Positions 23,957-45,135 of a DNA stretch of 64,000 nt are shown here, piece by piece. Position 1 is the first letter of the stretch; each line of letters opens with the position of its first letter. Position numbers and translations under genes: made by a program. The notes under the pieces are model-generated. The model searched no databases. It had not been told where the DNA came from and saw only the letters and a program-made list of their open reading frames with translations. This DNA comes from Candidatus Multivoradales bacterium (GTDB lineage Bacteria; Acidobacteriota; Thermoanaerobaculia; Multivoradales; JAHEKO01). The DNA is taken from the NCBI GenBank assembly GCA_965223155.1, contig CBDCVR010000013.1, forward strand, positions 1-64,000, in the 5' to 3' direction.

Positions 23957-24304
23957 ATGGCCGCAAACGTCGTCCTTGCGCTTGCCTTCGCCGGTAGCGC
24001 GGCGCTGGTCGCGGTTTTGGCGGTGCCGTCGATCGGCGGTCAAGTACCCAGGAATCGCTTGTATGGCGTTCGCTTCAAGAAAGCGTTCGAATCCGACGAG
24101 CACTGGTACGCGATCAACCGGTTCGGTGGCTGGCAGCTCCTGGGCTACGCGCTGTGCCTCGGAGTCCTGGCGGCTCTGCTAGCCGTCCTCCCCGGAGCGA
24201 AGCTTCAGCCCGGCACCTGGTACTTCTGGCCCGTCCTCCTCGCACCCGCTTGGCTCATCCTGCCCTGGACCTGGCGCATCGCGCGATTCTGCCGGCGTCT
24301 CTAG
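23957..24304 (+). CDS. SdpI/YhfL-family membrane protein
   Basis: PRNRLYGVRF..AFESDEHWYAINRFGG motif, three TMs. Confidence 0.75.
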   Translation: MAANVVLALAFAGSAALVAVLAVPSIGGQVPRNRLYGVRFKKAFESDEHWYAINRFGGWQLLGYALCLGVLAALLAVLPGAKLQPGTWYFWPVLLAPAWLILPWTWRIARFCRRL

Positions 24305-24316
24305 TGGCGCCCCAAT

Positions 24317-24371
24317 GCCGCCAAGAGCAGCCGCCAAGAGCCCCGCCGCCAAGAGCCCCGCCGACAAGAGC
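24317..24371. repeat. Short tandem repeat, 4x GCCG(C/A)CAAGAGC
   Basis: Copies at 24317, 24330, 24345 and 24360. Confidence 0.85.
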
Positions 24372-24586
24372 CTGGTACCTCTCGGCGCTGCAACCGGGGA
24401 GAGACCTGGTCTCGGCCCAAACTCCTGGCGAAACCGCAAGTCGAAGGTTTGCTGGTACTCGCAACCACGCCGAATGGGACCGGCCGATGCCGGGGGGCTC
24501 AGCACCTGCTCTACCGGCGCCGAACCGGGCCAGATATGGGATCGACGACGCTCTTCTACCGGTGCAGGCCGGCCAGATTGAAGTAA
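24372..24586 (+). pseudogene. 3' remnant of an Asp-box propeller gene
   Basis: Reads ..GETWSRPKLLAKPQVEGLLVLATTPNGTGRCRGAQHLLYRRRTGPDMGSTTLFYRCRPARLK*, homologous to the C-termini of the downstream copies; 5' part missing. Confidence 0.85.
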
Positions 24587-24610
24587 GGCCATTCAACAGG
24601 GGAGAACACG

Positions 24611-24937
24611 ATGGGAAATGGTGGACTCGACATAGCTTCTCGGAAGGCCGGGCCAAGGCGTTTGCATCCGCTCTTCGCGGGGCTCGTGATTCTTGCCGCC
24701 TCGGCTCTTGGACTGGTGTCCCCGGCGGCGGCGGCCAACGTCGCCCGGCCGGTGTACGACGCTCCGGACGATCTGCCGGACGACATGATGTGTGGCGATT
24801 CGGTGTCCGGGTACGTGCGGATGAAGAACAAGGGACAGCCCTGGAAGCGCCTGGCCGACGGTGGCGCCGGGCAGCGGCTGACGACGGCGGACTCTTGCCC
24901 GGTGCTAGCCTGCCTGGGACAAAGGAGGTCCGTATGA
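24611..24937 (+). CDS. Leader ORF copy L1: truncated N-terminus of the giant protein (signal peptide + partial Ig-like domain)
   Basis: First 94 aa nearly identical to 34394-34675; GGGGAG RBS; ATGA overlap with the next gene. Confidence 0.7.
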   Translation: MGNGGLDIASRKAGPRRLHPLFAGLVILAASALGLVSPAAAANVARPVYDAPDDLPDDMMCGDSVSGYVRMKNKGQPWKRLADGGAGQRLTTADSCPVLACLGQRRSV

Positions 24938-26172
24938 CCGATTGCCGAGCCCGCTGGTTGAGCGTTGGGGGTTTGTTGATGGTTTGTGTTCTGGCCTGGG
25001 GAACGTATCCCGCCGAGGCGGCCTGGACGAAGCCGCGACGCATCGGGCCGAGTGGTGGAAACCTAGTGCAGCCCGAGATCGCTGCGTCCGGTGCCTCCAT
25101 CCATGTGGTCTACCGGCCTGGGGGCGGAGGAGCAGTGCACGTGAGCAGCAGCGATTGTGGTGACACCTGGTCCGAAGTCAAGAACATACCGAGAACCATG
25201 CGCGGCAGCGGACATCAGGTCGCAGTTGTAGGTACGGTCGTGCATCTCGTCTGGACTCAATTCGAAGCGATTCGAGGCGTCGGGGGGACGCTCCAGGTCC
25301 TTTACAGACGAAGCGAGGATTCGGGAAGAACGTGGATGGCTAGGCAAAGGTTGTCGAGCACCGCGTGGCACAACGGTCTACCCTCACTCGCGGTACACGG
25401 TAACGATCTGTGGGTGGCATGGCCGCGTGGTGAAATTGTCCAGAATCGGTTTCGGGCCACGGGGGTGGTCGTCGCTCGAAGTCACAACCGAGGTCGGCGC
25501 TGGCGGCGACGTGCAGTGGTTGGGCACGCTCCCGGCGCCCGCCATCCTCGTATCGCGGTCGACCCCGATCTCCCGTCCGCGACGTCCCGACTGCATCTGG
25601 TCTGGGAACAAGAAGTTCCGGAGGAGGATCCGGAGTTCTTCAAGGAGCTCTTGCATCGCGAGAGCAGGGATGGCGGCCGTTCGTGGTCCGCTCCGGAACG
25701 CGTCAACGATCGACTTGGTCTCGAGGCGAGTGCTTTGATCGCTGTTGGAGGAGCCGCTCATGTGGCTCGACAGATCCTCCCGGGGTTTCCTAGGTCGCGA
25801 GCCGATGTCTTCTACTACCGAAAGCCTGGAGACGGAGCTTGGAGTCGGCAATGGCGTCTCAGCACACAGGATTTCGCCTCGGGTGCCAGGCTGGCAGGGG
25901 CTTCGGGCAGGCTATGGGCGGTATGGACGAATTTCTTGGGCCCCGCAGGGGGCGGCATCTCGGTACGCAGAAGTCGTAGCAACGGCGCGCGCTGGGCTCG
26001 GCCCCATGTCTTGCAGCCAGTCGAGGGTTCCTTCCCCGCGATCGCCATGCCTGTAGCCCCAGTCGGTTCATGTGCTGGGACCGCCCACCTGATCTATCAA
26101 GGCTTCGCGGAGGTGGATGGCGAGCAGGTCTTTGGGCTCGTCTACCAACGGAATCCGAGAAAGTTGCCTTAG
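24934..26172 (+). CDS. Secreted Asp-box (BNR)/sialidase-fold beta-propeller, divergent paralogue A (412 aa)
   Basis: AAGGAGG RBS; signal peptide ending AEA; Asp-boxes SSDCGDTW, SEDSGRTW, SRDGGRSW, SRSNGARW. Confidence 0.85.
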   Translation: MTDCRARWLSVGGLLMVCVLAWGTYPAEAAWTKPRRIGPSGGNLVQPEIAASGASIHVVYRPGGGGAVHVSSSDCGDTWSEVKNIPRTMRGSGHQVAVVGTVVHLVWTQFEAIRGVGGTLQVLYRRSEDSGRTWMARQRLSSTAWHNGLPSLAVHGNDLWVAWPRGEIVQNRFRATGVVVARSHNRGRRWRRRAVVGHAPGARHPRIAVDPDLPSATSRLHLVWEQEVPEEDPEFFKELLHRESRDGGRSWSAPERVNDRLGLEASALIAVGGAAHVARQILPGFPRSRADVFYYRKPGDGAWSRQWRLSTQDFASGARLAGASGRLWAVWTNFLGPAGGGISVRRSRSNGARWARPHVLQPVEGSFPAIAMPVAPVGSCAGTAHLIYQGFAEVDGEQVFGLVYQRNPRKLP

Positions 26173-26196
26173 TCGGGAACACAAGAGGAGCTTTGG

Positions 26197-26364
26197 ATGG
26201 GACCAAGCAAACGCATCGCGAACGCGGTCTTCATAGTCGGGATCACGGCGCTCATAGGCGCAGCGACTCCCACACTAGCCGCCAACAAGTCAGATGCTGT
26301 CGGCAACTCCCTCCCCTCCGAGATGATGTGTGGCGACCGTCAGGCCCTACGAAGAGCCACTTGA
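26197..26364 (+). pseudogene. Diverged leader relic (55 aa) of a second giant-protein paralogue
   Basis: GAGGAG RBS; MGPSKRIANAVFIVGITALIGAATPTLAANKSDAVGNSLPSEMMCGD.. matches the signal peptide + LPDDMMCGD pattern of the leaders. Confidence 0.6.
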
Positions 26365-26646
26365 CCTTGCGGCGTCATTTGCAATGTTTCGCCGCAAGAT
26401 CTAGGATCAATCTGCTGGTCCTCCCCTAGAGTCGGGACGCCGGGCTTGAGGCCCGGTCGAATCATGTGTAGGGAGGCTCATGTGTGGTGAGCGGAGGGAG
26501 ATGGGAACCTCATCCGATCGCGTACTGAGACAACTCGATCTGCGGCGCTCGGGCCGAACCACGGCCAGATGCGGCGGCACTGGACGGGGCTCTTCGACTC
26601 TTGGGACCTCGCCGGTCCTACCCTGCCTGGGACAAAGGAGGTCCGT

Positions 26647-27915
26647 ATGACCGATTGCCGATGGCACCGACGGTTGAGCGTTGGGGGGTTGTTGATGGTT
26701 TGTGTTCTGGCCTGGGGAACGTATCCCGCCGAGGCGGCCTGGAGTCGGCCGCAAGTCTTGCACAAGACAGTGTTTCTTGAAGATGGCGTGGCTCTTGCGG
26801 CGTCGGGAAATACGCTGCATGCCGTCTACTACGGAGAAGATCCGTCGCTCGAACAGAAGTCGATCATCTACTACCGCCGGAGCCGGGACTGCGGCACCAC
26901 GTGGAGTAGAGAGCAGCACGTAGCCGTCAACGAGTTCCACGGCGAGCTAGGGTTTGCCGCCGTCGGCGACGTGCTGCACCTGGCCTGGGCGGACCGAACA
27001 GTACGAGATCGCCGGAAGCGCTCGAAGCCGCGGGTCTTCTACGCCTCGAGCCGGGACGCCGGTCGCACCTGGAGCGAGCCGCGGTTGCTGTCTCCTCCGT
27101 CCTTCTACGCCGAGGCGCCGTCGTTGGCGGCATCGGGCGAGGAGGTCTACGTGGCCTATCGGCTCGGGGGAAAGGGGCCGAAACAGCGGTTCGAAAACCC
27201 ACGAATCGACCTTGCGGTGAGCACCGACGGGGGCGAGTCCTGGACTCGCCGGAGGGCAACACCGCGGGTGATAGCGAATGGCCCGCGGATCGCCTTGGCC
27301 GGACCACGGCCTGGCCTCGCTCCGCGTTTGCATCTGGTGTGGAGCGCCCACGACCCGCAAGGTCATGGTCCTCGCCATCAAGTCTCAGGAGACCGAGGCG
27401 CGACCTGGTCGAAGCAGCTGTTCTTGGATCAGAGCGGCCCAGAGACCGCCTCTTCGCATATCGAAGGCTTGGCGACTTCCGACGGGGACGTCCACACGGT
27501 TTGGCGAAGGCGTCCGGAAGGACCGTTTTCGGTTGAGGTCGTCTACGACAACAACGTCGGCGGTGGGTTTCATCCGGAAGGCCGGAAACTCAGTATCGAC
27601 CTGGACGCAGACATTCCGACCGCCCGTGCGGCGGCACTGGCAGTAGCGGGCCTGGCGGTCCACGTGGCCTGGTCGGAGGTCGGGCCGGCCGATGCTGCCC
27701 TGCTGTCTGTGCAAAGTGGCGATCGGGGGAGGACCTGGTCCCGGCCCAAGCTCTTGGCCAAGTCAAGAGTCGTTGGGGATACCGCCTTGGCAACGACACC
27801 CGATGGAGCCGGAGCGTGCCGGAGTGCCCAGCATTTGCTCTACCGGCGCCAACTCGGGTCCGGCCCAGGCTCGACGACGCTCTTCTACCGGCGCAGGCCG
27901 GCTAGATTGAAGTAG
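26647..27915 (+). CDS. Secreted Asp-box beta-propeller copy B1 (422 aa)
   Basis: RBS, signal peptide, Asp-boxes SRDCGTTW, SRDAGRTW, STDGGESW, SGDRGATW, SGDRGRTW. Confidence 0.88.
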   Translation: MTDCRWHRRLSVGGLLMVCVLAWGTYPAEAAWSRPQVLHKTVFLEDGVALAASGNTLHAVYYGEDPSLEQKSIIYYRRSRDCGTTWSREQHVAVNEFHGELGFAAVGDVLHLAWADRTVRDRRKRSKPRVFYASSRDAGRTWSEPRLLSPPSFYAEAPSLAASGEEVYVAYRLGGKGPKQRFENPRIDLAVSTDGGESWTRRRATPRVIANGPRIALAGPRPGLAPRLHLVWSAHDPQGHGPRHQVSGDRGATWSKQLFLDQSGPETASSHIEGLATSDGDVHTVWRRRPEGPFSVEVVYDNNVGGGFHPEGRKLSIDLDADIPTARAAALAVAGLAVHVAWSEVGPADAALLSVQSGDRGRTWSRPKLLAKSRVVGDTALATTPDGAGACRSAQHLLYRRQLGSGPGSTTLFYRRRPARLK

Positions 27916-27938
27916 GCCATTCAACAGGGGAGAACACG

Positions 27939-28265
27939 ATGGGAAATGGTGGACTCGACATAGCTTCTCGGAAGGCCGCGCCAAGACGATGGGGTACGTT
28001 CCTCGCTGGCTTCGTGATTCTTGCCGCCTCGGCTCTTGGACTGGTGTCCCCGGCGGCGGCGGCCAACGTCGCCCGGCCGGTGTACGACGCTCCGGACGAC
28101 CTGCCGGACGACATGATGTGTGGCGATTCGGTGTCCGGGTACGTGCGGATGAAGAACAAGGGGCAGCCCTGGAAGCGCCTGGCCGATGGTGGCGCCGGGC
28201 AGCGGCTGACGACGGCGGACTCTTGCCCGGTGCTAGCCTGCCTGGGACAAAGGAGGTCCGTATGA
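27939..28265 (+). CDS. Leader ORF copy L2
   Basis: As L1; carries the KAAPRRWGTF allele, same as the intact giant gene. Confidence 0.7.
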   Translation: MGNGGLDIASRKAAPRRWGTFLAGFVILAASALGLVSPAAAANVARPVYDAPDDLPDDMMCGDSVSGYVRMKNKGQPWKRLADGGAGQRLTTADSCPVLACLGQRRSV

Positions 28266-29527
28266 CCGATTGCCGAGCCCGCTGGTTGAGCGTTGGGGGT
28301 TTGTTGATGGTTTGTGTTCTGGCCTGGGGAACGTATCCCGCCGAGGCGGCCTGGAGTCGGCCGCAGAGGTTTCACACGACGAATCACGTATCGCAGGGAG
28401 CGGCCCTGGGCGCATCTGGGGACACTGTGCATGCCGTGTACTACGGGGAGGCTTCGCTCGAGCCTCTCGTGACGGCCATCTACTACCGACGCAGTCTGGA
28501 TTGCGGGTTGACGTGGGGCGGCGAGCGAGCGGTGGCATTCGATGCGCTCTACGGGTCCGTCAGCCTTGCCGCCGTCGGTGACGTGCTGCACCTGGCCTGG
28601 GCGGACCGAACGATACGGGATCGCCGGAAGCGCACGAAGCCGCGGGTCTTCTACGCTTCGAGCCGGGACGCCGGTCGCACCTGGAGCGATCCGAGGTTGC
28701 TGTCTCCTCCGTCCTTCTACGCCGAGGCGCCGTCGTTGGCGGCATCGGGCGACGAGGTCTACGTGGCCTACCGGCTCGGGGGAAAGGGGCCGAAACAGCG
28801 GTTCGAAAACCCACGAATCGACCTTGCGGTGAGCACCGACGGGGGCGAGTCCTGGACTCGCCGGAGGGCAACACCGCGGGTGATAGCGAATGGTCCGCGG
28901 ATCGCCTTGGCCGGACCACGGCCTGGCCTCGCTCCGCGTTTGCATCTGGTGTGGAGCGCCCACGACCCGCAAGGTCATGGTCCTCGCCATCAAGTCTCAG
29001 GAGACCGAGGCGCGACCTGGTCGAAGCAGCTGTTCTTGGATCCGAGCGGCCCAGAGACCTTCTCTTCGCATATCGAGGGCCTAGCGACATCCGGAAGCGA
29101 TGTCCATACGGTTTGGCGGAGATTCCCAGAGGAACCGGTTTCGATTGAGGTCGTTTACGACAACAACGTCGGCGGTGGGTTTCACTCAGAAGGCCGGAAA
29201 CTCAGTATCGACCTGGACGCAGACATTCCAACCGCCCGTGCGGCGGCACTGGCAGTAGCGGGCCTGGCGGTCCACGTGGCCTGGTCGGAGGTCGGGCCGG
29301 CCGATGCCGCCCTGCTGTCTGTGCGAAGTGGCGATCGAGGAGAGACTTGGTCCCGGCCCAAACTCTTGGCGAAATCAGCGGTGTTCGGGGATATCTCTTT
29401 GGCTACGACATCCGACGGAGTCGGGGCGTGTCGTGGCGCGCAGCACTTGATGTACCGGCGCAGAGGTGGCCCTCGTCCGGGCTCAACCAACCTTCTTTAC
29501 CGGCGCAGGCCGGCCAAATTGAAGTAG
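28262..29527 (+). CDS. Secreted Asp-box beta-propeller copy B2 (421 aa)
   Basis: As B1, with different allele blocks. Confidence 0.88.
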   Translation: MTDCRARWLSVGGLLMVCVLAWGTYPAEAAWSRPQRFHTTNHVSQGAALGASGDTVHAVYYGEASLEPLVTAIYYRRSLDCGLTWGGERAVAFDALYGSVSLAAVGDVLHLAWADRTIRDRRKRTKPRVFYASSRDAGRTWSDPRLLSPPSFYAEAPSLAASGDEVYVAYRLGGKGPKQRFENPRIDLAVSTDGGESWTRRRATPRVIANGPRIALAGPRPGLAPRLHLVWSAHDPQGHGPRHQVSGDRGATWSKQLFLDPSGPETFSSHIEGLATSGSDVHTVWRRFPEEPVSIEVVYDNNVGGGFHSEGRKLSIDLDADIPTARAAALAVAGLAVHVAWSEVGPADAALLSVRSGDRGETWSRPKLLAKSAVFGDISLATTSDGVGACRGAQHLMYRRRGGPRPGSTNLLYRRRPAKLK

Positions 29528-29553
29528 GGCAATCCAAGACAGGGGAGAACACG

Positions 29554-29880
29554 ATGGGAAATGGTGGACTCGACATAGCTTCTCGGAAGGCCGGGCCAAG
29601 GCGTTTGCATCCGCTCTTCGCGGGGCTCGTGATTCTTGCCGCCTCGGCTCTTGGACTGGTGTCCCCGGCGGCGGCGGCCAACGTCGCCCGGCCGGTGTAC
29701 GACGCTCCGGACGATCTGCCGGACGACATGATGTGTGGCGATTCGGTGTCCGGGTACGTGCGGATGAAGAACAAGGGGCAGCCCTGGAAGCGCCTGGCCG
29801 ATGGTGGCGCCGGGCAGCGGCTGACGACGGCGGACTCTTGCCCGGTGCTAGCCTGCCTGGGACAAAGGAGGTGCGTATGA
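29554..29880 (+). CDS. Leader ORF copy L3
   Basis: As L1. Confidence 0.7.
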   Translation: MGNGGLDIASRKAGPRRLHPLFAGLVILAASALGLVSPAAAANVARPVYDAPDDLPDDMMCGDSVSGYVRMKNKGQPWKRLADGGAGQRLTTADSCPVLACLGQRRCV

Positions 29881-31142
29881 CCGATTGCCGAGCCCGATGG
29901 TTGAGCGTTGGGGGTTTGTTGATGGTTTGTGTTCTGGCCTGGGGAACGTATCCCGCCGAGGCGGCCTGGAGTCGGCCGCAAGTCTTGCACAAGACAGTGT
30001 TTCTTGAAGATGGCGTGGCTCTTGCGGCGTCGGGAAATACGCTGCATGCCGTCTACTACGGAGAAGATCCGTCGCTCGAACAGAAGTCGATCATCTACTA
30101 CCGCCGGAGCCGGGACTGCGGCACCACGTGGAGTAGAGAGCAGCACGTAGCCGTCAACGAGTTCCACGGCGAGCTAGGGTTTGCCGCCGTCGGCGACGTG
30201 CTGCACCTGGCCTGGGCGGACCGAACAGTACGAGATCGACGGAAGCGCTCGAAGCCGCGGGTCTTCTACGCTTCGAGCCGGGACGCCGGTCGCACCTGGA
30301 GCGAGCCGCGGTTGCTGTCTCCTCCGTCCTTCTACGCAGAGGCGCCGTCGCTGGCGGCATCGGGCGAGGAGGTCTACGTGGCCTATCGGCTCGGGGGAAA
30401 GGGGCCGAAACAGCGGTTCGAAAACCCACGAATCGACCTTGCGGTGAGCACCGACGGGGGCGAGTCCTGGACTCGCCGGAGGGCAACACCGCGGGTGATA
30501 GCGAATGGCCCGCGGATCGCCTTGGCCGGACCACGGCCTGGCCTCGCTCCGCGTTTGCATCTGGTGTGGAGCGCCCACGACCCGCAAGGTCATGGTCCTC
30601 GCCATCAAGTCTCAGGAGACCGAGGCGCGACCTGGTCGAAGCAGCTGTTCTTGGATCAGAGCGGCCCAGAGACCTTCTCTTCGCATATCGAGGGCCTAGC
30701 GACTTCCGGCGGCGATGTCCATACGGTTTGGCGGAGATTCCCAGAGGAGCCGGTTGCGATCGAAGTCGTTTACGACAACAACGTCGGCGGTGGGTTTCAT
30801 CCAGAAGGGCGGAAACTCAGTATCGACCTGGACGCAGACATTCCAATCGCCCGTGCGGCGGCACTGGCAGTAGCGGGCCTGGCGGTCCACGTGGCCTGGT
30901 CGGAAGACGGGCCTCTGTCCACAGTCTTGTTGTCGGTGCGGAGCGGCGATCGGGGGAGGACCTGGTCCCGGCCCAAGCTCTTGGCCAAGTCAAGAGTCGT
31001 TGGGGATACCGCCTTGGCAACGACACCCGATGGAGCCGGAGCGTGCCGGAGTGCCCAGCACTTGCTCTACCGGCGCCAACTCGGGTCCGGCCCAGGTTCG
31101 ACGACGCTCTTCTACCGGCGCAGGCCGGCCAGATTGAAGTAA
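29877..31142 (+). CDS. Secreted Asp-box beta-propeller copy B3 (421 aa)
   Basis: As B1. Confidence 0.88.
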   Translation: MTDCRARWLSVGGLLMVCVLAWGTYPAEAAWSRPQVLHKTVFLEDGVALAASGNTLHAVYYGEDPSLEQKSIIYYRRSRDCGTTWSREQHVAVNEFHGELGFAAVGDVLHLAWADRTVRDRRKRSKPRVFYASSRDAGRTWSEPRLLSPPSFYAEAPSLAASGEEVYVAYRLGGKGPKQRFENPRIDLAVSTDGGESWTRRRATPRVIANGPRIALAGPRPGLAPRLHLVWSAHDPQGHGPRHQVSGDRGATWSKQLFLDQSGPETFSSHIEGLATSGGDVHTVWRRFPEEPVAIEVVYDNNVGGGFHPEGRKLSIDLDADIPIARAAALAVAGLAVHVAWSEDGPLSTVLLSVRSGDRGRTWSRPKLLAKSRVVGDTALATTPDGAGACRSAQHLLYRRQLGSGPGSTTLFYRRRPARLK

Positions 31143-31166
31143 GACCAGTTAACAGGGGAGAACACG

Positions 31167-31490
31167 ATGGGAAATGGTGGACTCGACATAGCTTCTCGGA
31201 AGGCCGGGCCAAGGCGTTTGCATCCGCTCTTCGCGGGGCTCGTGATTCTTGCCGCCTCGGCTCTTGGACTGGTGTCCCCGGCGGCGGCCAACGTCGCCCG
31301 GCCGGTGTACGACGCTCCGGACGACCTGCCGGACGACATGATGTGTGGCGATTCGGTGTCCGGGTACGTGCGGATGAAGAACAAGGGACAGCCCTGGAAG
31401 CGCCTGGCCGACGGCGGCGCCGGCCAGCGGCTGACGACTGCGGACTCTTGCCCGATGCTAGCCTGCCTGGGACAAAGGAGGTCCGTATGA
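31167..31490 (+). CDS. Leader ORF copy L4
   Basis: As L1, one Ala codon shorter. Confidence 0.7.
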   Translation: MGNGGLDIASRKAGPRRLHPLFAGLVILAASALGLVSPAAANVARPVYDAPDDLPDDMMCGDSVSGYVRMKNKGQPWKRLADGGAGQRLTTADSCPMLACLGQRRSV

Positions 31491-32752
31491 CCGATTGCCG
31501 AGCCCGATGGTTGAGCGTTGGGGGGTTGTTGATGGTTTGTGTTCTGGCCTGGGGAACGTATCCCGCCGAGGCGGCCTGGAGTCGGCCGCAGAGGTTTCAC
31601 ACGACCAATCACGTATCGCACGGAGCGGCCCTGGGCGCATCCGGGGACACTGTCCATGCCGTGTACTACGGGGAGGCTTCGCTCGAGCCTCTCGTGACGG
31701 CCATCTACTATCGACGCAGTCTGGATTGCGGGCTGACGTGGGGTCGCGAGCGAGCGGTGGCATTCGACGCGCTCTACGGGTCCGTCAGCCTTGCCGTGGT
31801 CGGCGACGTGCTGCACCTGGCTTGGGCGGACCGAACAGTACGAGATCGCCGGAAGCATCGGAAGCCGCGGGTCTTCTACGCCTCGAGCCGGGACGCCGGT
31901 CGCACCTGGAGCGAGCCGCGGTTGCTGTCTCCGCCGTCCTTCTACGCCGAGGCGCCGTCGTTAGCGGCATCGGGCGAGGAGGTCTACGTGGCCTATCGGC
32001 TCGGGGGAAAGGGGCCGAAACAGCGGTTCGAAAACCCACGAATCGACCTTGCGGTGAGCACCGACGGGGGCGAGTCCTGGACTCGCCGAAAGGCAACATC
32101 GCGAGTTACGGCGAATGGCCCGCGGATCGCCTTGGCCGAATCGCCGCCTGGTCTCGCTCCGCGTTTGCATCTGGTGTGGAGCGCCCACGACCCGCAAGGT
32201 CATGGTCCTCGCCATCAAGTCTCAGGGGACCGAGGCGCGACCTGGTCGAAGCAGCTGTTCTTGGATCAGAGCGGCCCAGAGACCGCCTCTTCGCATATCG
32301 AAGGCTTGGCGACTTCCGACGGGGACGTCCACACGGTTTGGCGAAGGCGTCCGGAAGGACCGTTTTCGGTTGAGGTCGTCTACGACAACAACGTCGGCGG
32401 TGGGTTTCATCCAGAAGGCCGGAAACTCAGTATCGACCTGGACGCAGACATTCCGACCGCCCGTGCGGCGGCACTGGCAGTAGCGGGCCTGGCGGTCCAC
32501 GTGGCCTGGTCGGAGGTCGGGCCGGCCGATGCCGCCCTGCTGTCGGTGCGAAGTGGCGATCGAGGAGAGACTTGGTCCCGGCCCAAACTCTTGGCGAAAT
32601 CAGCGGTGTTCGGGGATATCTCTTTGGCTACGACATCCGACGGAGTCGGGGCGTGTCGTGGCGCGCAGCACTTGATGTACCGGCGCAGAGGTGGCCCTCG
32701 TCCGGGCTCAACCAACCTTCTTTACCGGCGCAGGCCGGCCAAATTGAAGTAG
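31487..32752 (+). CDS. Secreted Asp-box beta-propeller copy B4 (421 aa)
   Basis: As B1. Confidence 0.88.
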   Translation: MTDCRARWLSVGGLLMVCVLAWGTYPAEAAWSRPQRFHTTNHVSHGAALGASGDTVHAVYYGEASLEPLVTAIYYRRSLDCGLTWGRERAVAFDALYGSVSLAVVGDVLHLAWADRTVRDRRKHRKPRVFYASSRDAGRTWSEPRLLSPPSFYAEAPSLAASGEEVYVAYRLGGKGPKQRFENPRIDLAVSTDGGESWTRRKATSRVTANGPRIALAESPPGLAPRLHLVWSAHDPQGHGPRHQVSGDRGATWSKQLFLDQSGPETASSHIEGLATSDGDVHTVWRRRPEGPFSVEVVYDNNVGGGFHPEGRKLSIDLDADIPTARAAALAVAGLAVHVAWSEVGPADAALLSVRSGDRGETWSRPKLLAKSAVFGDISLATTSDGVGACRGAQHLMYRRRGGPRPGSTNLLYRRRPAKLK

Positions 32753-32778
32753 GGCAATCCAAGACAGGGGAGAACACG

Positions 32779-33105
32779 ATGGGAAATGGTGGACTCGACA
32801 TAGCTTCTCGGAAGGCCGGGCCAAGGCGGTTGCATCCGCTCTTCGCGGGGTTCGTGATTCTTGCCGCCTCGGCCCTTGGACTGGCCTCCCCGGCGGCAGC
32901 AGCCAACGTCGCCCGGCCGGTGTACGACGCTCCGGACGACCTGCCGGACGACATGATGTGTGGCGATTCGGTGTCCGGGTACGTGCGGATGAAGAACAAG
33001 GGACAGCCCTGGAAGCGCCTGGCCGACGGCGGCGCCGGGCAGCGGCTGACGACTGCGGACACTTGCCCGGTGCTACGCTGCCGGGAACGAAGGAGGTCCG
33101 TATGA
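32779..33105 (+). CDS. Leader ORF copy L5
   Basis: As L1, with several private substitutions (tail TCPVLRCRERRRSV). Confidence 0.7.
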   Translation: MGNGGLDIASRKAGPRRLHPLFAGFVILAASALGLASPAAAANVARPVYDAPDDLPDDMMCGDSVSGYVRMKNKGQPWKRLADGGAGQRLTTADTCPVLRCRERRRSV

Positions 33106-34367
33106 CCGATTGCCGAGCCCGATGGTTGAGCGTTGGGGGACTGTTGATGGTCTGTGTTCTGGCCTGGGGGGCATATCCCGCCGAGGCGGCCTGGAGTCGG
33201 CCGCAGAGGTTTCACACGACCAATCACGCATCGCGCGGAGCGGCCCTGGGCGCATCCGGGGACACTGTCCATGCCGTGTACTACGGGGAGGCTTCGCTCG
33301 AGCCTCTCGTGACGGCCATCTACTATCGACGCAGTCTGGATTGCGGGCTGACGTGGGGTCGCGAGCGAGCGGTGGCATTCGACGCGCTCTACGGGTCCGT
33401 CAGCCTTGCCGTGGTCGGCGACGTGCTGCACCTGGCTTGGGCGGACCGAACAGTACGAGATCGCCGGAAGCATCGGAAGCCGCGGGTCTTCTACGCCTCG
33501 AGCCGGGACGCCGGTCGCACCTGGAGCGAGCCGCGGTTGCTGTCTCCGCCGTCCTTCTACGCCGAGGCGCCGTCGTTGGCGGCATCGGGCGAGGAGGTCT
33601 ACGTGGCCTATCGGCTCGGGGGAAAGGGGCCGAAACAGCGGTTCGAAAACCCACGAATCGACCTTGCGGTGAGCACCGACGGGGGCGAGTCCTGGACTCG
33701 CCGGAGGGCAACACCGCGGGTGATAGCGAATGGTCCGCGGATCGCCTTGGCCGGACCACGGCCTGGCCTCGCTCCGCGTTTGCATCTGGTGTGGAGCGCC
33801 CACGACCCGCAAGGTCATGGTCCTCGCCATCAAGTCTCAGGAGACCGAGGCGCGACCTGGTCGAAGCAGCTGTTCTTGGATCAGAGCGGCCCAGAGACCT
33901 TCTCTTCGCATATCGAGGGCCTAGCGACATCCGGAAGCGATGTCCATACGGTTTGGCGGAGATTCCCAGAGGAACCGGTTTCGATTGAGGTCGTTTACGA
34001 CAACAACGTCGGCGGTGGGTTTCACTCAGAAGGCCGGAAACTCAGTATCGACCTGGACGCAGACATTCCAACCGCCCGTGCGGCGGCACTGGCAGTAGCG
34101 GGCCTGGCGGTCCACGTGGCCTGGTCGGAGGTCGGGCCGGCCGATGCCGCCCTGCTGTCTGTGCGAAGTGGCGATCGAGGAGAGACTTGGTCCCGGCCCA
34201 AACTCTTGGCGAAATCAGCGGTGTTCGGGGATATCTCTTTGGCTACGACATCCGACGGAGTCGGGGCGTGTCGTGGCGCGCAGCACTTGATGTACCGGCG
34301 CAGAGGTGGCCCTCGTCCGGGCTCAACCAACCTTCTTTACCGGCGCAGGCCGGCCAAATTGAAGTAG
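33102..34367 (+). CDS. Secreted Asp-box beta-propeller copy B5 (421 aa)
   Basis: As B1. Confidence 0.88.
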   Translation: MTDCRARWLSVGGLLMVCVLAWGAYPAEAAWSRPQRFHTTNHASRGAALGASGDTVHAVYYGEASLEPLVTAIYYRRSLDCGLTWGRERAVAFDALYGSVSLAVVGDVLHLAWADRTVRDRRKHRKPRVFYASSRDAGRTWSEPRLLSPPSFYAEAPSLAASGEEVYVAYRLGGKGPKQRFENPRIDLAVSTDGGESWTRRRATPRVIANGPRIALAGPRPGLAPRLHLVWSAHDPQGHGPRHQVSGDRGATWSKQLFLDQSGPETFSSHIEGLATSGSDVHTVWRRFPEEPVSIEVVYDNNVGGGFHSEGRKLSIDLDADIPTARAAALAVAGLAVHVAWSEVGPADAALLSVRSGDRGETWSRPKLLAKSAVFGDISLATTSDGVGACRGAQHLMYRRRGGPRPGSTNLLYRRRPAKLK

Positions 34368-34393
34368 GGCAATCCAAGACAGGGGAGAACACG

Positions 34394-37300
34394 ATGGGAA
34401 ATGGTGGACTCGACATAGCTTCTCGGAAGGCCGCGCCAAGACGATGGGGTACGTTCCTCGCTGGCTTCGTGATTCTTGCCGCCTCGGCTCTTGGACTGGT
34501 GTCCCCGGCGGCGGCGGCCAACGTCGCCCGGCCGGTGTACGACGCTCCGGACGATCTGCCGGACGACATGATGTGTGGCGATTCGGTGTCCGGGTACGTG
34601 CGGATGAAGAACAAGGGGCAGCCTTGGAAGCGCCTGGCGGACGGCGGCGCCGGCCAGCGGCTGACGACGGCGGACAACCCCCTGGTCAAGGCCGGAACCC
34701 GTGTGTACAAGCTCAAGGCGGGGACCACGGTTCGGAGAGGCAAGGTCTACGATTTTCCGGTCACTCTCACGGCACCTGAACATTCAAACTACACGACCTT
34801 TGTCGAGTACACCGCAGTCTGGGAGATGGGCCTCCCAGACGGATCGACCTTTCCGCATCCCTACGAACACACGGTGCGGGTGTGGTGTCCGAGGCGCACC
34901 CAGAACAACGCGATTGTCGTCGGGCATAACCTCCCCGGCTCAGTGCCTTGTGGCGAGACGGTCGGAGAGTCCGGCGATCTTTGGGTGGAGATGAAGAACG
35001 TCGGAGGCCGCACTTGGAGGCCAAGACGGAAGAAGGGGGATGGCCAGCACCTGTACACGCCTGACAATCCGTTCCATCCCGAAGTCTCGATTCCGCTACC
35101 GGTGAATACGACCGTCCAACCCCTGGAGACCCATCGATTCCCGGTGCGGCTGACGGCTCCGGAAGCCTATGGCGTCCACGACGTCACGTTCCGAATGCGA
35201 CCGCACAAGGGAAAACCCTTCGGCGAAGAGCTGCCGTGGACCCTCACTTCGCAGTGCGCCAATAACGATGCCCAGTTCGTGGAGACCAAGACGACGGTCC
35301 CCGCGACCATGAGCTGCGGTGCGGAGGGCGACTACCACGTCGCATTCCTCAATACCGGCGACACTCGCTGGAAGAAGGGCAAGTACTCTCTTCGTCTGTT
35401 CGACGGCCCCTTCGGGACCAAGAATCTCAAGGTTCGAGGGCAAGACGTTCGTCCAACCCGGGATCGGCGATTCCCGGTACGCCTTGTGGCTCCGAGCGAG
35501 AACGGGACGCATACGACGACCTGGCGGATGCACACAGGCGCGGGAGTGCCGTTCGGGGAGGCCACGACGTTGTCGATCGACGTCACGGATTGCCAGGAGC
35601 CGGAGCCGCTGGACGCGGCGCCCGTTCCAAGCGGTATCGACTTCCCATCCACGATGCAGTGCGGCTCGACCTACCCCGCTACCTTGACGATGAGAAATAC
35701 CGGCACCAAGAACTGGAAAGAGAGAAAGCCGCACCACCGTCTGCGCCCCGTGGCGGGGAAGAACGACCGGTTCTGGCGAAGGATCCGTATGGTTAAGCTT
35801 CCCGACGGTGTCGTCGTCGGTGAGAACGGCACCCATCCGTTCGAAATGACCCTCTCGGCTCCGATCTTGGACCCGTCGGAGCCCGAGGTTATGAATCTCT
35901 CTACCAGTTGGACCATGGTCGAGGTTCGAGAGGACGAGACCGAGGCTTTTGGGACGCCCTACGGACAGGACATCGAAGTTGTTTGTCTGGACTACGATTC
36001 CGAGGAGGTGAAGAAGAACGCCTCGGTTCAGGTGGCGCCGGGAGGGTCCATCCGCTTTGTCATCGAGGTCAAGAACAGCGGACGGCGCAACTGGGTGACT
36101 CCCGAGCTGCGAGACATTAGCGGTACGTTCGTGAAGAGGTCGTACGGTGGGACGGTGGCTTCGCAGGGAAGCCATGTCTTTGGCTTCACGCGAACTGCCC
36201 CGTCGGCGATAGGTACCTACGCGACCCAGTGGCAGATCTGGGAACCAACTGCGGGCCTCTTCGGCGCGGTCATCTCGATTCAAGTCACGGTCTCGGAGGG
36301 CTCGTCTGAAGTGGGCTCGTGCACCGGCGGAGGCTCCGCGGCCAAGCTGCCGCGCCTGGGCATTCTGGGGTTCAATCCGCGCTATCTGACACAGGACGGA
36401 AACGCCGCCTATGTCCTGACCGGAGCCCATAGCTGGAGCGTGGTGCAGAAGCACGAGCGAATGAACAAGCTCGAAGGCTACATGAGCAAGCTACGCGGCA
36501 AAGGCCACAATTTCACCCGGGGATGGTACTGGGAGGACTGTTTCTACGACCCCATTCCGTATAGCGCAAGCCAGTACAAGTGCATGGATCCCGGCAAGAG
36601 CTTTTTGCCGACGGCGGATGAGCCTGGGAATGGTTACAACCAGGCGTACGCAGATCTCCTCAAGGCCCGTCTCAACGAGGCCGCCGACAACGACCTCTAC
36701 ATGAGCACGATGCTCTTCCAGGGGTGGAGTCTGCCCATTAGCTTACGGAAGGAAGAGGGTGGAGTCGATGGTTGGGCCCGGAATCCGTATCGTAAGGAAT
36801 TCGCGGACGGCAGGGCACTCCACTCCGACGGGATTCTTGACGAGCAGATCTACTACGCCAACTACATCCTGAACCAGACCAAGGGCTGCACCAACACCTT
36901 CTTTGAAGTTTCGAACGAGAGCGTCGTGACCGGCCAGGTGGCTGGGGAGAAGTGGCAGAGGCTAGTTGTCACCGAGATCAAGAAAAAGATCTGCGGTCAG
37001 AAACCCTGCCTGGCCTGGGCCTCCTGCTGGTTCGGGGCGTCCAACACCGCTCTGATCGGCACGGGCGCGGATCTGGTCTCCTTTTGCGGGAACGATCCGG
37101 ATTCGCCTGACTGGGCCGGCGGCGATGCGGTCCTCATCTTTGACACGGACCATGTTGACGCCGAGAATCCGAATCCGAAGCGGGCGTGGAAAGCGTTCCT
37201 ACGAGGGCAGCACCCGATCCTGATGGATCTCGAGACCGAGGACCTGGTCTGGTACAAGCCGGGCCAGAACTTTCCCAACCAAACTCAGAAGAACGGTTCC

Positions 37301-40300
37301 CGGGACTATGGACTTGCGCTCGGAGAGATCCAAGCGATCATCGACAAGATCAATGACAATGGCGACTACGTCCAAGGCAGTGAGGGGATCGCCAGGTCCA
37401 AGAGCCGGCTCAAGCACCTGGCGCCGGTTGCTCCCGCCCAAGAAGGCATCGTCGGCTCGAGCTCGCCGAACTTTGCGCTGTTCTCCAGCGGGACTCCGTG
37501 TCCCGGGTTCTCGGCGAACCAGAAGTGCGGACTTGCTGCTCCAAACGGCAAGGAGTTCGTTGTGTACGCTGAACAGGGTGTCCAAGTCTGTTCGCTGACC
37601 GTGGGCTCGTCGTACCTGGCCTCTTGGAAGAATCCGTTTGCGAACGGGTACTTTCTCGAAGACATCAAGCGGGACGGCGTTTCCAACTGTGAGACCTTCG
37701 GCTACCCGCAGGCGGCGGGAGACTTCGCGGTCCTGCATTTGACCCGCCTCGAGAATCCGCCTTCAGCTTCGATCGCAGCGTTCCGGGCCGGGCAAGAGCT
37801 TCCGGCTCCGGTCAAGATCTCCACCCGCCAGCAACTGGATCTCTACGGTAGCGATTCGACGACCGATCCGTTGACCTATGCTTGGGAGTTTGGCGACGGA
37901 CACGCGGGCCCGGCCGAAGAGCAAGTGGATCACATCTACGAAGAGCCAGGTGTGTACGTGGTCGAGCTCGAGGTAACCGATGACGATGGCCAGACCGCTT
38001 TCGCCGAGCTAGAGATCACCGCGGTCGATGGTCCGGTCGCGACCTTCGTCACGAGTCCGCGGGCGGAAGGGGGGGTGGTTACGGTGCTCGACGGCGATGA
38101 GGTGGGCTTTGACGCGACGTACTCGACGAGCGATCCGCTGCACCCGATCGTCTCCTACGAGTGGGATTTTGGTGACGGAACGGCAGCTGACGGTGCGGCG
38201 CTGGCGGAGACGACACATACTTTCGTCGTCGGACCGGGTGTGAGCGAGACGAGCTATACGGTGGGATTGAGGGTCCGAGACGACTTGGATGCGGCCTCCG
38301 ATCTGGAGACGGTCGTCGTGCGAGTCCAGCTGGCCCCGGCAATCGTTGTCCAGCCGCAGGACGCTACGGCCACCGAGGGCGAAACAGTGAGCCTCTCGTG
38401 TGTTGCGACTGGCGCGCCGCCGCTCGTCTATCGGTGGCTGAAGAATGATGAAGAACTCTTGGATGGTGTCGGGGTCTCGGGCGCGGGTACCGCGACGTTG
38501 ACGCTAAGCGCGCTCGAAGAGCCAGACTCCGGACGATACCGGTGCCGCGTCGAGAACCCCGTTGGCGAAGCCGAGTCCGAGGAAGCTGAGATGTCCGTCG
38601 GTGCTGCGCCTACGATCGTCACTTCGCCGGTCACGATCGAGACGAACCGGGGTGGAGAGGCCGATCTCCGCTGCTGGGTCGAGGCGGCCGAACCGCTGAC
38701 CTGGCAGTGGTACAAGGACTCTGCAGCCGCTGCCGACGGAGGTCCGATCGCGGGAGTTGACAGTCAGACCCTTCGGATTACGAACGCCGATGGGCTGGAG
38801 GCCGGCGAGTACTACTGCTCCGTCTCGAACCCACTAGGATCCATGACGTCCGGGATCTTTACCGTTCGCCACATTCCCTGGAAGGCCTACCCGATCGCGA
38901 CGATCTCTTCCGAAGGCTTCACCAACACGGCCGAGACCGAGCCGATTCACGAGGCGCTGAACGACCAGGAGAATCTGGCGACATCGACCGCCGATGACGG
39001 CGTGTTGGATTCGCTCCGGGTGGGGATGGCCGCGGTGGACGATCCGAACACCGACTACGGTCACGAGGTCTATGTCTGGGGCAACGCGCTCGATGCGGCG
39101 ACGTGTGCCATCGAGGTGAGGCTCTCTCAAGGCTCGATCGAGCTGGCCTCGGGGAGTCTGGTGCTGGAGGACGAGGCCACGAGCGAGGACGGTTGGGTGC
39201 GGTTGGAGGTCCCGGCCGAGGCCGCGGCCAACATCAGCGACTACGGCGACGTCCAGATCGAGGTCGAGAAGATCCACGATCCGGCCAATGTCTGCCGGGC
39301 CGAGCTCGAGCGCATCGTCTTCCGGGTGCCGCCGTCGCCGACGCCGGTGGAGATCGCCGTGCCGGTGGCTACGGAGTCGAACGAAGGCTTCAGCGCAGAG
39401 CCGATTCATGAACAACTGGACGACGCGGACAACGTCGCGACGTCCACGGTCGCGGACGGTACGTTGGATGCCTTCGTGGTGCGGATGGGCGCGGTGAGCG
39501 ATCCGGGGGTGGATGAGGGGCATGTGGTCAGGGTGTGGGGCGCGGCTCTCGATGCGGAGCCTGTGGAGGTTCGGCTGAGCCTCTATCAGGGGCCGGCGCT
39601 TCTGGCGACTCTGGATGTCTCGTTCCCCTCGTGGACGAAGGTGGTACGGATCGAGTTACCGACGGCGCTCGCGGCGCTGATTACCGACTACACGGATCTA
39701 AGGCTGGGTGTCGAGAAGACCCACGCCGGCGTCAACGGCTCGGACCGGCGCGTCGAGATCCGGAAGATCGAGTTCGAGGTGCCGATTCCGCCGGCGATCA
39801 CGCAGCACCCTTCGGGTCAGACGATCGGGGTGGGGCAGACGGCCAACTTCACTTGTGCCGCCTCCGGTTCGGAGTCGCTGGTCTACCAGTGGCAGAAGGA
39901 CGGCGTGGATCTGGTGGACGGCGGCTCGATCTCGGGTGCCGAGACCGAGAGTCTCACCATCACGAACGCCCAGCTTGCCGATGCCGGCGCCTACCGGTGC
40001 GTGGCGATGGAAAGCGATGCTTCGGCGTACTCGGACGAGGCTGTCCTGGACGTGGGCGTGCCGCCGGCGATTACGGCCGATCCGGAGCCCGCGACGGCGC
40101 CGCTGGGAGGTCAGGCCAGTTTCTCGTGCTCGGCGACGGGCAGCGGTACGTTGGCGTACTTGTGGTTCCAGGATGGGGTCGGTCTGGTGGATTCGGCCCG
40201 GATCTCGGGAGCCTCGACGCCGACGGTGACGATGACCGATCTCGAGGCCGGGGATGTGGGTGAGTACTCGTGCCAGGTGGCGAGCCCGTACGGCTCGGCC

Positions 40301-42705: not shown

Positions 42706-44256
42706 CTATCTGAGCGCCCGCTTCAGGATCTTGCCGGTCGGCCCTTTGGGGAGCTCGTCTAGGATCTCGACCAGGCGCGGGTATTTGTAGGCGGCGAGGC
42801 GCTCCTTGCAGTAGGCGACGAGGTCGTCGGCGCTCGGCCGCTCGCCGTCCCTGAAGGCGACGACCGCTTTGACCTCCTCGCCCAGCCGGTCGTCGGGCGC
42901 GCCGATGACGGCGGCTTCGAGGATGGCGGGGTGGGCGTAAAGGATCTCTTCGATCTCGCGCGGGTAGACGTTGAAGCCGCCCCGGATAATCATGTCTTTC
43001 TTGCGATCCACGATGAAGTAGTAGCCGTCCTCGTCCCGGGTGGCGATGTCGCCGGTGTGGAACCAGCCGTCCACGATGGACTCGGCGTTGGCCTCGGGCC
43101 GGTTGAAGTAGCCCTTCATGACGTTGTGGCCCTTGATCAGGATCTCGCCGGGCGTGTCGATTTCCTCGACGATCGAGCCGTCGTCGGCCTCCAGCCGGAA
43201 CTCGACGCCGTGGATCGGGATGCCGACCGAGCCGGCCTTCTTGGGGCGGTCCAGAACGTTGAACGAGGCCACCGGCGAGGTCTCGGACAGGCCATAGCCT
43301 TCGAGGATGTTGACGCCGTATTTCTCGTCAAACGCGGTCATCACCTCGACCGGCATAGCCGCGCCTCCCGAGATACAGAACTGGAGGCTCGAGAGATCGT
43401 AGCTGTCGGCCTCCGGATGATGGAGGAGAGCGAAGTACATGGTCGGCACGCCGCCGAAGAAAGTCACCCGGTGCTCTTGCATCAGCTCCAGCGCCGCGGT
43501 GGGATCGAAGCGCGGCAGCAGAATGACCGTGCCGCCGACCGCGAGGGTGGCGGTCAGGATGACGCTCTGGCCGAAGCTGTGAAAGAGGGGCAGGGCCGCC
43601 AGGGCGACGGTGTCCTCGGGCAAGGGCAAGAGCTTGGTCGAGGTGTAGTAGGCGTTGAAGAAGGAGTTGAAGTGGGTGAGCTCGGCACCCTTGGGACGCC
43701 CCGTGGTGCCCGACGTATAGAGGATGACGGCGGTGTCGTCGGGCATGGTGGGTTCGATCTCGGTGAGCGGGTCGGCCTCGGCCAGGAGGGTCGAGAAGTC
43801 CTCGGTGGTCTCCGGGGGCTGAGACCCGGCACCGGCATCCGCGCCCGCGGGCTCGCCCTGGGGGCGGACGGCGACCAAGAGCCGGCAACCGTCCGCGTCC
43901 GCGACCGCCTCCGATGCCGGCTCGAGGCAGTCGAGCCAGGCGACCAGCGCCACGGCCTGGGAGTCTTCCAGGTGGTAGTGGATCTCCTCGGCCTTGAGGA
44001 GGACGTTGAGGGGCACCACGACCGCGCCGGCGTAGAGAATCCCGTAGTAGGCGATCGCGAATTGGGGCACGTTCGGCACCAGGAGAGCTACGTGGTCGCC
44101 GGGCGCGACCCCCCGCTGCCGTAGCGCTCCCGCGAAGGCTTGGGCCGAGCCGTGGAGCTCGCGGTAGGACAGCCGCGCGTCACCGAGAACGATGGCGGTC
44201 TTGTCCGGAACCCGATGGGCCGAGTCGCGGAGCAGTTGGGCCAGGTTGAGACTCAT
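42706..44256 (-). CDS. Long-chain fatty-acid--CoA ligase (FadD-like)
   Basis: YTSGTTGRPKG, EGYGLSET, FHTGD, DRKKDMI, PKGPTGKILK. Confidence 0.93.
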   Translation of the reverse strand: MSLNLAQLLRDSAHRVPDKTAIVLGDARLSYRELHGSAQAFAGALRQRGVAPGDHVALLVPNVPQFAIAYYGILYAGAVVVPLNVLLKAEEIHYHLEDSQAVALVAWLDCLEPASEAVADADGCRLLVAVRPQGEPAGADAGAGSQPPETTEDFSTLLAEADPLTEIEPTMPDDTAVILYTSGTTGRPKGAELTHFNSFFNAYYTSTKLLPLPEDTVALAALPLFHSFGQSVILTATLAVGGTVILLPRFDPTAALELMQEHRVTFFGGVPTMYFALLHHPEADSYDLSSLQFCISGGAAMPVEVMTAFDEKYGVNILEGYGLSETSPVASFNVLDRPKKAGSVGIPIHGVEFRLEADDGSIVEEIDTPGEILIKGHNVMKGYFNRPEANAESIVDGWFHTGDIATRDEDGYYFIVDRKKDMIIRGGFNVYPREIEEILYAHPAILEAAVIGAPDDRLGEEVKAVVAFRDGERPSADDLVAYCKERLAAYKYPRLVEILDELPKGPTGKILKRALR

Positions 44257-44322
44257 GACATGCCTCCCGGCGGGTCCGGTCTCGGAGAACGGGACGCGCG
44301 GCGCCCCGTCGCTGTTGTTTCC

Positions 44323-44952: not shown

Positions 44953-45135
44953 TTTCAGTTTTCCCGAGTCGGTATAAGATTTTGGTTGCACGCGGGGCGA
45001 TCGATCGAGTCGCTGCTACCGAGTCCCGGGTGCGAACCCCCGAACATCTCGATCCGCACATCCCGGCTCGCATCATCTAAGGCCGATCGCGAGCTCCGCC
45101 CCGAATTGCGAAGACTATCCCGAGTCCCTGTGAGA

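Follow-up and report, generated by a model that had tools for sequence, protein, structure and literature searches.

Organization of the locus

We analysed a window of 64,000 nucleotides that opens a 1.24-Mb contig (CBDCVR010000013.1) in the 4.0-Mb, 15-contig assembly GCA_965223155.1 of a Candidatus Multivoradales bacterium. From 24.3 to 34.7 kb, the + strand of the window carries an array in which genes for BNR-type propeller proteins (P0 to P5) alternate with short open reading frames (ORFs), here called leaders (L0 to L5), which repeat the 5' end of a giant gene that closes the array; the order is remnant-L1-P0-L0-P1-L2-P2-L3-P3-L4-P4-L5-P5-giant. Five of the leaders are intact and nearly free of missense change over the part copied from the giant gene. 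We interpret the leaders, giving this about an even chance of being right, as junction scars or by-products of one old tandem duplication, on which constraint would act through their link to the giant gene.

The giant gene (34394..42484, + strand, 2696 aa) carries at positions 34394-34675 the segment that is copied in the leaders, all of which lie on the same strand. L1 (24611..24937, 108 aa) is 94% identical to the giant 5' end, and its TGA overlaps the ATG of P0; L2 (27939..28265, 108 aa) is 98% identical and has a haplotype block in codons 14-25 in common with the giant gene; L3 (29554..29880) has 108 aa; L4 (31167..31490, 107 aa) has an in-frame 3-nt deletion in the signal-peptide c-region; and L5 (32779..33105, 108 aa), 92% identical, is the most diverged. 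Each of the five copies the ribosome-binding site, start, signal peptide and codons 1-94 of the giant gene (ending ..QRLTTAD) and after codon 94 switches to a 14-codon tail, which in 5/5 contains the AAGGAGG of the propeller gene behind it and in 5/5 ends in a TGA that overlaps the propeller ATG as ATGA. A sequence-only reading of the window had described this same anatomy, and it holds for all five copies, as does its remark that every frame is open and that the only indel is one in-frame codon in L4: the alignment places that deletion at columns 113-115, within a CGG/GCG run, and shows no further indel among the five. Its count of five truncated copies is right for the intact ones, but it overlooked a sixth, decayed copy, L0 (26197..26646, + strand).

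In the leader translations a charged n-region, a hydrophobic h-region and an A-x-A site can be seen by eye. Leader residues 26-94 equal the giant protein save for a V-to-A change in L5 and the loss of an alanine in L4, and the signal-peptide block is the only part of residues 1-94 that otherwise differs. From a propeller stop to the next leader ATG there are 23-26 nt, with GGGGAG six nt ahead of the ATG; the 15 nt preceding the ATG and codons 1-13 are unchanged in 6/6 copies (L1-L5 and the giant gene), and the remaining gap varies. The repeat unit is nearly all coding, running from the propeller stop through this short gap and the leader to the 4-nt overlap and the next propeller, and the role of spacers, which the earlier reading had given to the leaders, is nearly trivial at such distances. 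Neither Pfam nor NCBIfam gave a match for the leader itself.

The propeller genes, likewise on the + strand, are P0 (24934..26172, 412 aa), P1 (26647..27915, 422 aa) and, each with 421 aa, P2 (28262..29527), P3 (29877..31142), P4 (31487..32752) and P5 (33102..34367). They encode BNR/Asp-box proteins with signal-peptide-like starts of their own. The three that were scanned, P0, P1 and P2, match PF13088 BNR_2 with 48.8-68.9 bits against a cut-off of 31.4 (E 8e-13 for P0 and 6e-19 for P1), weak profile matches connect the propellers to solved sialidases (E 7.5e-6 and weaker), and NCBIfam gave no match for them. P0 is a divergent paralogue, 37% identical to P2 in amino acids, and its near-identity to the other units is confined to the first ~95 nt; P3, P4 and P5 share 85-97% identity with P2. 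Two types can be told apart, A (P1 and P3, whose N-terminal blocks are 99% identical) and B (P2, P5 and P4, the latter with A-like middle blocks), which differ in N- and C-terminal blocks of only 58-71% DNA identity, the other blocks being 96-100% identical. The proportion of synonymous differences per synonymous site (pS) is 0.07-0.13 within a type, with a ratio of non-synonymous to synonymous rates (dN/dS) of 0.17-0.24, and 0.24-0.29 between types, and some blocks have sharp edges within which it approaches saturation. A unit pS of 0.07-0.29, together with two propeller types that contain near-saturated blocks, suggests that the array is old.

The 475-nt interval between P0 and P1, which has the appearance of a spacer, is L0. 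Its ATG lies 24 nt past the P0 stop and opens a different signal-peptide-like sequence up to an MMCGD motif common to the leaders; it is interrupted by a stop at 26362-26364, contains ~140 nt of additional sequence and has a strongly diverged 3' part before the common junction and tail are reached, with an intact AAGGAGG ahead of P1. This AAGGAGG and the last ~35 nt are kept although L0 has decayed and no longer resembles the giant gene. Pfam gave no match for the long antisense ORFs or for a 119-aa ORF in the L0 spacer, which we treated as high-G+C noise. At the left edge of the array lies a propeller remnant (24383..24583, + strand) comprising the last ~67 codons without a start, with 69% amino-acid identity to P2 residues 355-421; like L0, it had escaped the sequence-only reading. 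Exactly between this remnant and the preceding SdpI-like gene, a 15-nt tandem repeat of 3.9 copies occupies 24317-24372, and it may mark a deletion or insertion that shortened the first unit.

Reality of the array

The 282-nt 5' segment of the giant gene occurs at six places in the 4.0-Mb genome, every one of them at the array locus, with identities of 100 (the giant gene itself), 98, 94, 94, 93 and 92% and E values of 1e-115 to 1e-145, and on these values the likeness between leaders and giant gene is far beyond chance. The leader start-to-start intervals are 3328, 1615, 1610, 1615 and 1615 nt, the first being of double length and containing P0 and L0, so the locus consists of head-to-tail direct repeats with a constant period, as expected of a tandem segmental duplication array. 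The program TRF cannot detect a period of 1.6 kb.

Near-identical 1.6-kb repeats are difficult to assemble, which raises the question of whether the array, or its number of units, was produced by the assembler; we regard this as very improbable. The copies differ at many sites and in a structured fashion, and the genome is in only 15 contigs, of which the one with the array extends over 1.24 Mb. Short-read contigs from four runs (X1-X4), which represent at most three samples of one study and possibly include the source sample, were placed on positions 33102-36500. In X1 and X3 a contig connects position 34676 back to 33102 via an L5-type tail, and in X1, X3 and X4 contigs finish in loose ends with an L4-type or L5-type tail. 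Across the four runs, contigs bridge leader codon 94 to the tail and the propeller start with these two tail types and with both propeller types, and the between-copy variants of the leaders are seen again. Word depths in these short, low-coverage contigs, ~10-35 for the repeat and ~3-5 for the unique part of the giant gene, give no basis for a copy number. Furthermore, a second assembly, on a 25,234-nt contig, holds three leaders and the C-terminus of a giant protein.

Substitution pattern in the leaders

Variable sites were classed among the six copies (L1-L5 and the giant gene). Codons 1-13 have no change of either kind; codons 14-25, the n/h region of the signal peptide, where two haplotypes segregate, have 5 synonymous and 8 non-synonymous changes; codons 26-41 have 4 and 1, codons 42-94 have 8 and 0, and the tail has 0 and 8. 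An alignment of the six copies with a comparison of dN and dS had been proposed by the sequence-only reading, and it yields a strong bias: across codons 26-94, 12/13 changes are synonymous where about a third would be expected (binomial 1.5e-5), and the contrast with the tail (12 synonymous to 1 non-synonymous against 0 to 8) has a Fisher probability of 4e-5. The constraint ends exactly at the homology boundary between codon 94 and the tail. With the giant gene set aside, the five leaders have a mean pS of 0.092 and a corresponding non-synonymous proportion (pN) of 0.0027, a pN/pS of ~0.03 that lies below the 0.17-0.34 of the propellers, and the raw divergence of the tail is 0.076. By these measures the leaders are as old as the units around them, yet avoid missense change more strictly than the propellers do. 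Selection in the upstream frame of the propeller was considered and rejected, the variable sites being third positions of the leader frame.

These figures bear on the possibility that the leaders are kept merely as open, translated bridges whose amino-acid sequence is irrelevant: ribosomes would cover ~330 nt, avert transcriptional polarity on an ~18-kb operon and reinitiate at the ATGA. The tight chain of ORFs, with its 23-26-nt gaps and its ATGA overlap in 5/5, is compatible with such a role, as are the in-frame nature of the sole indel and the absence of any terminator-like hairpin on the + strand within a leader (of nine hairpin consensus matches, one, at 29893, is on the + strand and eight are on the - strand). 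A bridge, however, predicts only that stops and frameshifts are lost, not a near-absence of missense change; the propellers own an AAGGAGG 5 nt from their ATG; and P1, with its N-terminal block almost identical to that of P3, is intact behind dead L0 and a 280-nt untranslated stretch. We consider this explanation improbable. On the same grounds the earlier statement that the leaders act as translational couplers is not supported as it was put, since the propellers have their own AAGGAGG, which P1 keeps behind dead L0, the ATGA is one of three frames that the junction could have given, and pure coupling would favour an open frame only, without blocking missense. The evidence points, indirectly, against a dependence of propeller translation on leader translation.

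With 107-108 codons and no + strand terminator-like hairpin inside them, the leaders do not resemble regulatory leader peptides (upstream ORFs of the attenuation type). A programmed frameshift that would fuse leader to propeller was also rejected, the propeller having its own signal peptide and start.

Exchange among units and the second assembly

Several patterns show exchange among the units of the array and with the giant 5' end. In the four-gamete test, 53/136 pairs of 17 informative leader sites fail. L2 and the giant gene have in common the 13-site haplotype block of codons 14-25 despite a separation of 6.4 kb, and neither the propeller type nor the gap sequence that precedes them is the same. 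Propeller blocks, moreover, are shared in patterns that cut across neighbouring units. The private changes of L5 cluster in alignment columns 51-123, with 6 more in the tail and others in the 5' end of P5, a pattern that resembles the transfer of whole tracts more than mutation site by site. The haplotype block in codons 14-25 and the N-termini of L0 and of the protein P0002, described below, are too divergent for local mutation and likewise look tract-like, as do the sharp-edged, nearly saturated propeller blocks.

The second assembly contributes three intact leader ORFs (P0001, P0002 and P0041) and P0040, which comprises 394 aa from the C-terminus of a giant protein that differs slightly from the present one; all four are recorded on a 25,234-nt contig that is presumably one and the same. 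P0001 combines an L4-type 5' part, including the L4-type deletion, with an L5-type tail, and could be the product expected of an L4 by L5 crossover that drops one unit. P0002 has an L0-type start, intact here, followed by a standard mature part and an L4-type tail, and P0041 has a tail variant of its own. Over the eight intact leaders of both assemblies, residues 58-94 show one change (P to T, in P0002) and the tails differ at seven positions. P0040, the last 394 aa of the giant protein, is annotated there as an ORF of its own that begins at an internal GTG-equivalent start, and the giant gene may be interrupted or mis-assembled in that assembly.

Origin of the leaders and source of the constraint

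In every leader, even decayed L0, giant sequence gives way to one common tail at an identical base, which argues for a single founding event. Before the duplication, the giant gene would have followed a propeller gene in one operon. The left breakpoint would have fallen ~41 nt upstream of the ATG of the BNR-propeller gene and the right one after codon 94 of the giant gene, and the tail would be the former upstream region of the propeller, which P1 would still retain behind L0. Each added unit would thus consist of a propeller, 23-26 nt, giant codons 1-94 and the tail. Because such a unit carries the Shine-Dalgarno site, ATG and signal peptide of the giant gene, each leader would be a complete translatable ORF from the outset. 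The tail can be read in three frames, giving the actual 14 codons that end in ATGA, a 5-codon tail that ends in TAG, or an in-frame fusion to the propeller; being one of these three outcomes of the junction, the ATGA overlap needs no design.

Since then the array would have evolved as a mosaic, by unequal crossover and gene conversion among its units and with the giant 5' end, with tracts probably imported from related strains as well. The earlier reading had proposed that a leader, by crossing over with the giant 5' segment, changes the number of propellers and always leaves the giant gene intact; this is borne out by the anatomy, but it would be true of any tandem duplication. Constraint could reach the leaders in two ways: through tracts that had evolved in functional giant alleles, and through the cost of a damaged leader that recombines into the giant gene, that is, through second-order selection. 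The latter predicts that constraint should end at the homology boundary and that L0 should decay once it is unlike the giant gene, both as observed. Second-order selection and tract import, taken together, we hold to be an even call. The leaders would be translated as a side effect, handing ribosomes to the propeller start, and we do not think that their constraint stems from a function of the peptide.

Several points weigh against this account. In a toy simulation with six copies and unbiased conversion, in which non-synonymous alleles were barred from the giant position only, leader pN/pS came out at 0.94-1.04 at the observed pS, against the observed ~0.03, and because of this gap exchange with a constrained giant gene does not, in the model, by itself yield the observed signature. 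Calibrated to pS, the same simulation has conversion at ~11x the mutation rate, which implies only a tiny cost from bad leaders that are copied into the giant gene; with so small a cost, second-order selection would need a very large effective population. Import from the giant alleles of array-free strains is an assumption, as no donor or relative was found in the collections searched. Moreover, the tail divergence of 0.076 is close to the leader pS of 0.092, which fits equal age of the two parts, with missense changes removed in the leaders themselves.

An alternative is that the leader ORFs are themselves under selection, as a junction-born small gene family that is translated and exported as a putative peptide of ~65 aa, whose functional part would be the 52 giant-derived residues (an acidic stretch and the first strands of an Ig-like domain). 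We judge this possible but rather unlikely, and we are similarly doubtful of a more specific version, in which the ~65-aa leader peptide would mimic the N-terminus of the giant protein and be made one-to-one with the propeller that it overlaps. The sequence-only reading had likewise entertained a secreted ~65-aa peptide; the strong synonymous bias agrees with that idea, but the neutral tail, dead L0 and the tract-like variation leave room for other readings. The failure of exchange with the giant gene alone in the simulation speaks for selection on the leaders, and so do their pN/pS, well below that of the propellers, the 12/13 synonymous changes in codons 26-94 and the invariance of codons 1-13 and of the 15 nt before them in 6/6 copies when the rest of the gap is variable. 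Of nine known leader copies, 8/9 are intact (five here and three in the other assembly, L0 being dead), residues 58-94 are almost uniform among those eight, and the three or four distinct N-termini are all, by eye, signal-peptide-like. At the same time, the tail, which makes up about a fifth of the mature peptide, shows neutral evolution, L0 was allowed to die, and the collections searched hold no family, relative or stand-alone homologue beyond this lineage. The junction, according to an alignment of the repeats (giant domain 1 aligns with domain 2 at 38% identity, E 6e-10), falls ~40 residues into an Ig-like domain of ~110 residues. Behind its signal peptide and an acidic stretch, a leader therefore has only about the initial third of an Ig-like fold, and it would probably not fold by itself. 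A complex prediction for leader peptide and propeller scored 0.02 against a mark of 0.32, a result that counts neither for nor against binding.

The preferred reading, in which the leaders are scars of the duplication, and the one in which they are selected in their own right would give the locus different meanings. What is otherwise junction debris is here intact and identical in amino acids to its parent over a synonymous divergence of ~0.09, and the tail provides a built-in neutral control. If the constraint is inherited by recombination, a functional gene holds its own fragments in shape. If the constraint is the leaders' own, the locus would document cleanly how a duplication junction gives rise to a gene and, should the peptide family be real, would offer a dated instance from bacteria in which a 5' fragment and recruited non-coding sequence became a new secreted protein.

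Giant gene, flanking region and searches for relatives

The 2696-aa giant protein is on record for the array contig. In Pfam terms it combines a signal peptide with N_BRCA1_IG-type Ig-like repeats, two PKD and six Ig_3/I-set domains, and it ends in a LamG-like domain; most probably it is secreted or located at the cell surface. Residues ~700-1140 (window 36500-37800) form a stretch of ~440 residues without a Pfam match, by eye non-repetitive, in which an enzymatic or binding module not yet characterised could lie. Within the giant ORF, at 39409-39484 on the + strand, ARAGORN places a tRNA-Trp (cca), probably a false positive of G+C-rich coding sequence. At least five other ORFs, of 1245-1314 aa and located in genome G000, carry the same Ig-like repeats, with 34-36% identity to giant residues 170-533; sites with such repeats include C14:747103-764900, C14:1325527-1327029 and C15:1153495-1154991, and three of these ORFs lie within 18 kb on C14.

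The array and giant gene have a G+C content of 0.60-0.655, compared with 0.66-0.72 in the flanks, an island-like pattern over window positions 24000-42000 with no tRNA or integrase at its edges according to ARAGORN and the ORF list. The left flank holds cytochrome c maturation genes and the SdpI-like gene. On the right follow an acyl-CoA-ligase-like gene, named from its sequence, and then phosphodiesterase genes: a pair of + strand ORFs with a 4-nt stop/start overlap, the first of which (44140-47391) has a Pfam match to type I phosphodiesterase/nucleotide pyrophosphatase, the second (47388-49304) being its paralogue as judged from the translation only. A promoter scan returned one match where 0.8 were expected and gave nothing usable.

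Relatives were sought in several collections; none with this locus was found, nor anything of use for polarising the leader substitutions. Among 41 related genomes, the window's own counted, the propeller query matched 10, with a best foreign identity of 33-38% and no array; in one of them (G003) the propeller homologue stands alone with no giant gene adjoining. With the giant N-terminal query, residues 1-98 were matched only in the five leaders, all other matches starting at residue 165 or later. The genomes of the same genus are distant, at 45-50% amino-acid identity for one flanking gene, and the flank is non-syntenic; in tblastn searches with 11 window proteins against two loci, the query gene only was matched. 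Searches of metagenome contigs (142 pattern matches) and genome contigs (47) gave no confirmed relative. Proteins of 318-2000 aa yielded no homologue of giant residues 1-181, and those of 1482-4718 aa none of residues 1-220. A search of representative proteins gave 33 matches, of which only P0001 and P0002 were leader-like; the giant protein itself is unlisted there, and long orthologues may be invisible in that set.

Comparison with known systems

RecA-driven duplications are known from many bacteria. PMC9946442 describes how RecA mediates the duplication, and also the resolution, of a region whose copy number is dynamic; related themes are treated in PMC1428787, PMC11111574 and a preprint on microhomology-mediated tandem duplication (10.64898/2026.02.28.708716). 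The locus shares with RecA-dependent tandem duplication arrays the head-to-tail units, the constant period, the one novel junction and the mosaic of exchanged blocks and, as in such arrays, crossover between units would alter the copy number while the flanking genes stay intact. Unlike transient amplifications, the array appears old, with a pS of 0.07-0.29 between units and two diverged propeller types. It also differs from the usual tandem arrays in that the junction lies inside a neighbouring gene, so that each unit has a truncated ORF with a start, in which missense changes have not built up.

Rhs and CdiA orphans are 3' fragments that carry an alternative module. The leaders resemble such orphan modules or silent cassettes in being fragments beside an expressed gene, to which 282 nt at 92-98% identity would allow recombination. 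Unlike them, they are 5' fragments, lie upstream and bring no alternative coding module; as their mature part has the same amino acids as the giant protein, recombination with a leader would change the number of propellers and not the giant protein. The orphan rhs fragments described in PMC3967940 are without initiation and export signals of their own, whereas GGGGAG, ATG and signal peptide of the giant gene are all present in the leaders.

A stop/start overlap of the form ATGA is the mark of translationally coupled overlapping genes, and in 5/5 the leader TGA overlaps the propeller ATG in this way. In contrast to coupled genes, however, the overlap here would have been created by the frame of the junction, and the propeller has a strong ribosome-binding site of its own. 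Partial gene duplication is also known to give birth to new, chimeric ORFs, and the leaders resemble these in joining a 5' gene fragment to formerly non-coding sequence under inherited expression signals. They differ from established chimeric ORFs in that the new part, the tail, is without constraint and any function is putative.

Tandem duplications, the commonest large mutations of bacteria, usually do not last long, and truncated ORFs at their junctions are regarded as debris. The origin of the leaders is ordinary in this sense, and what is unusual is that these junction ORFs are old, intact and free of missense beside a neutral tail and a dead sibling. On present evidence, the locus is a well-dissected example of a known process.

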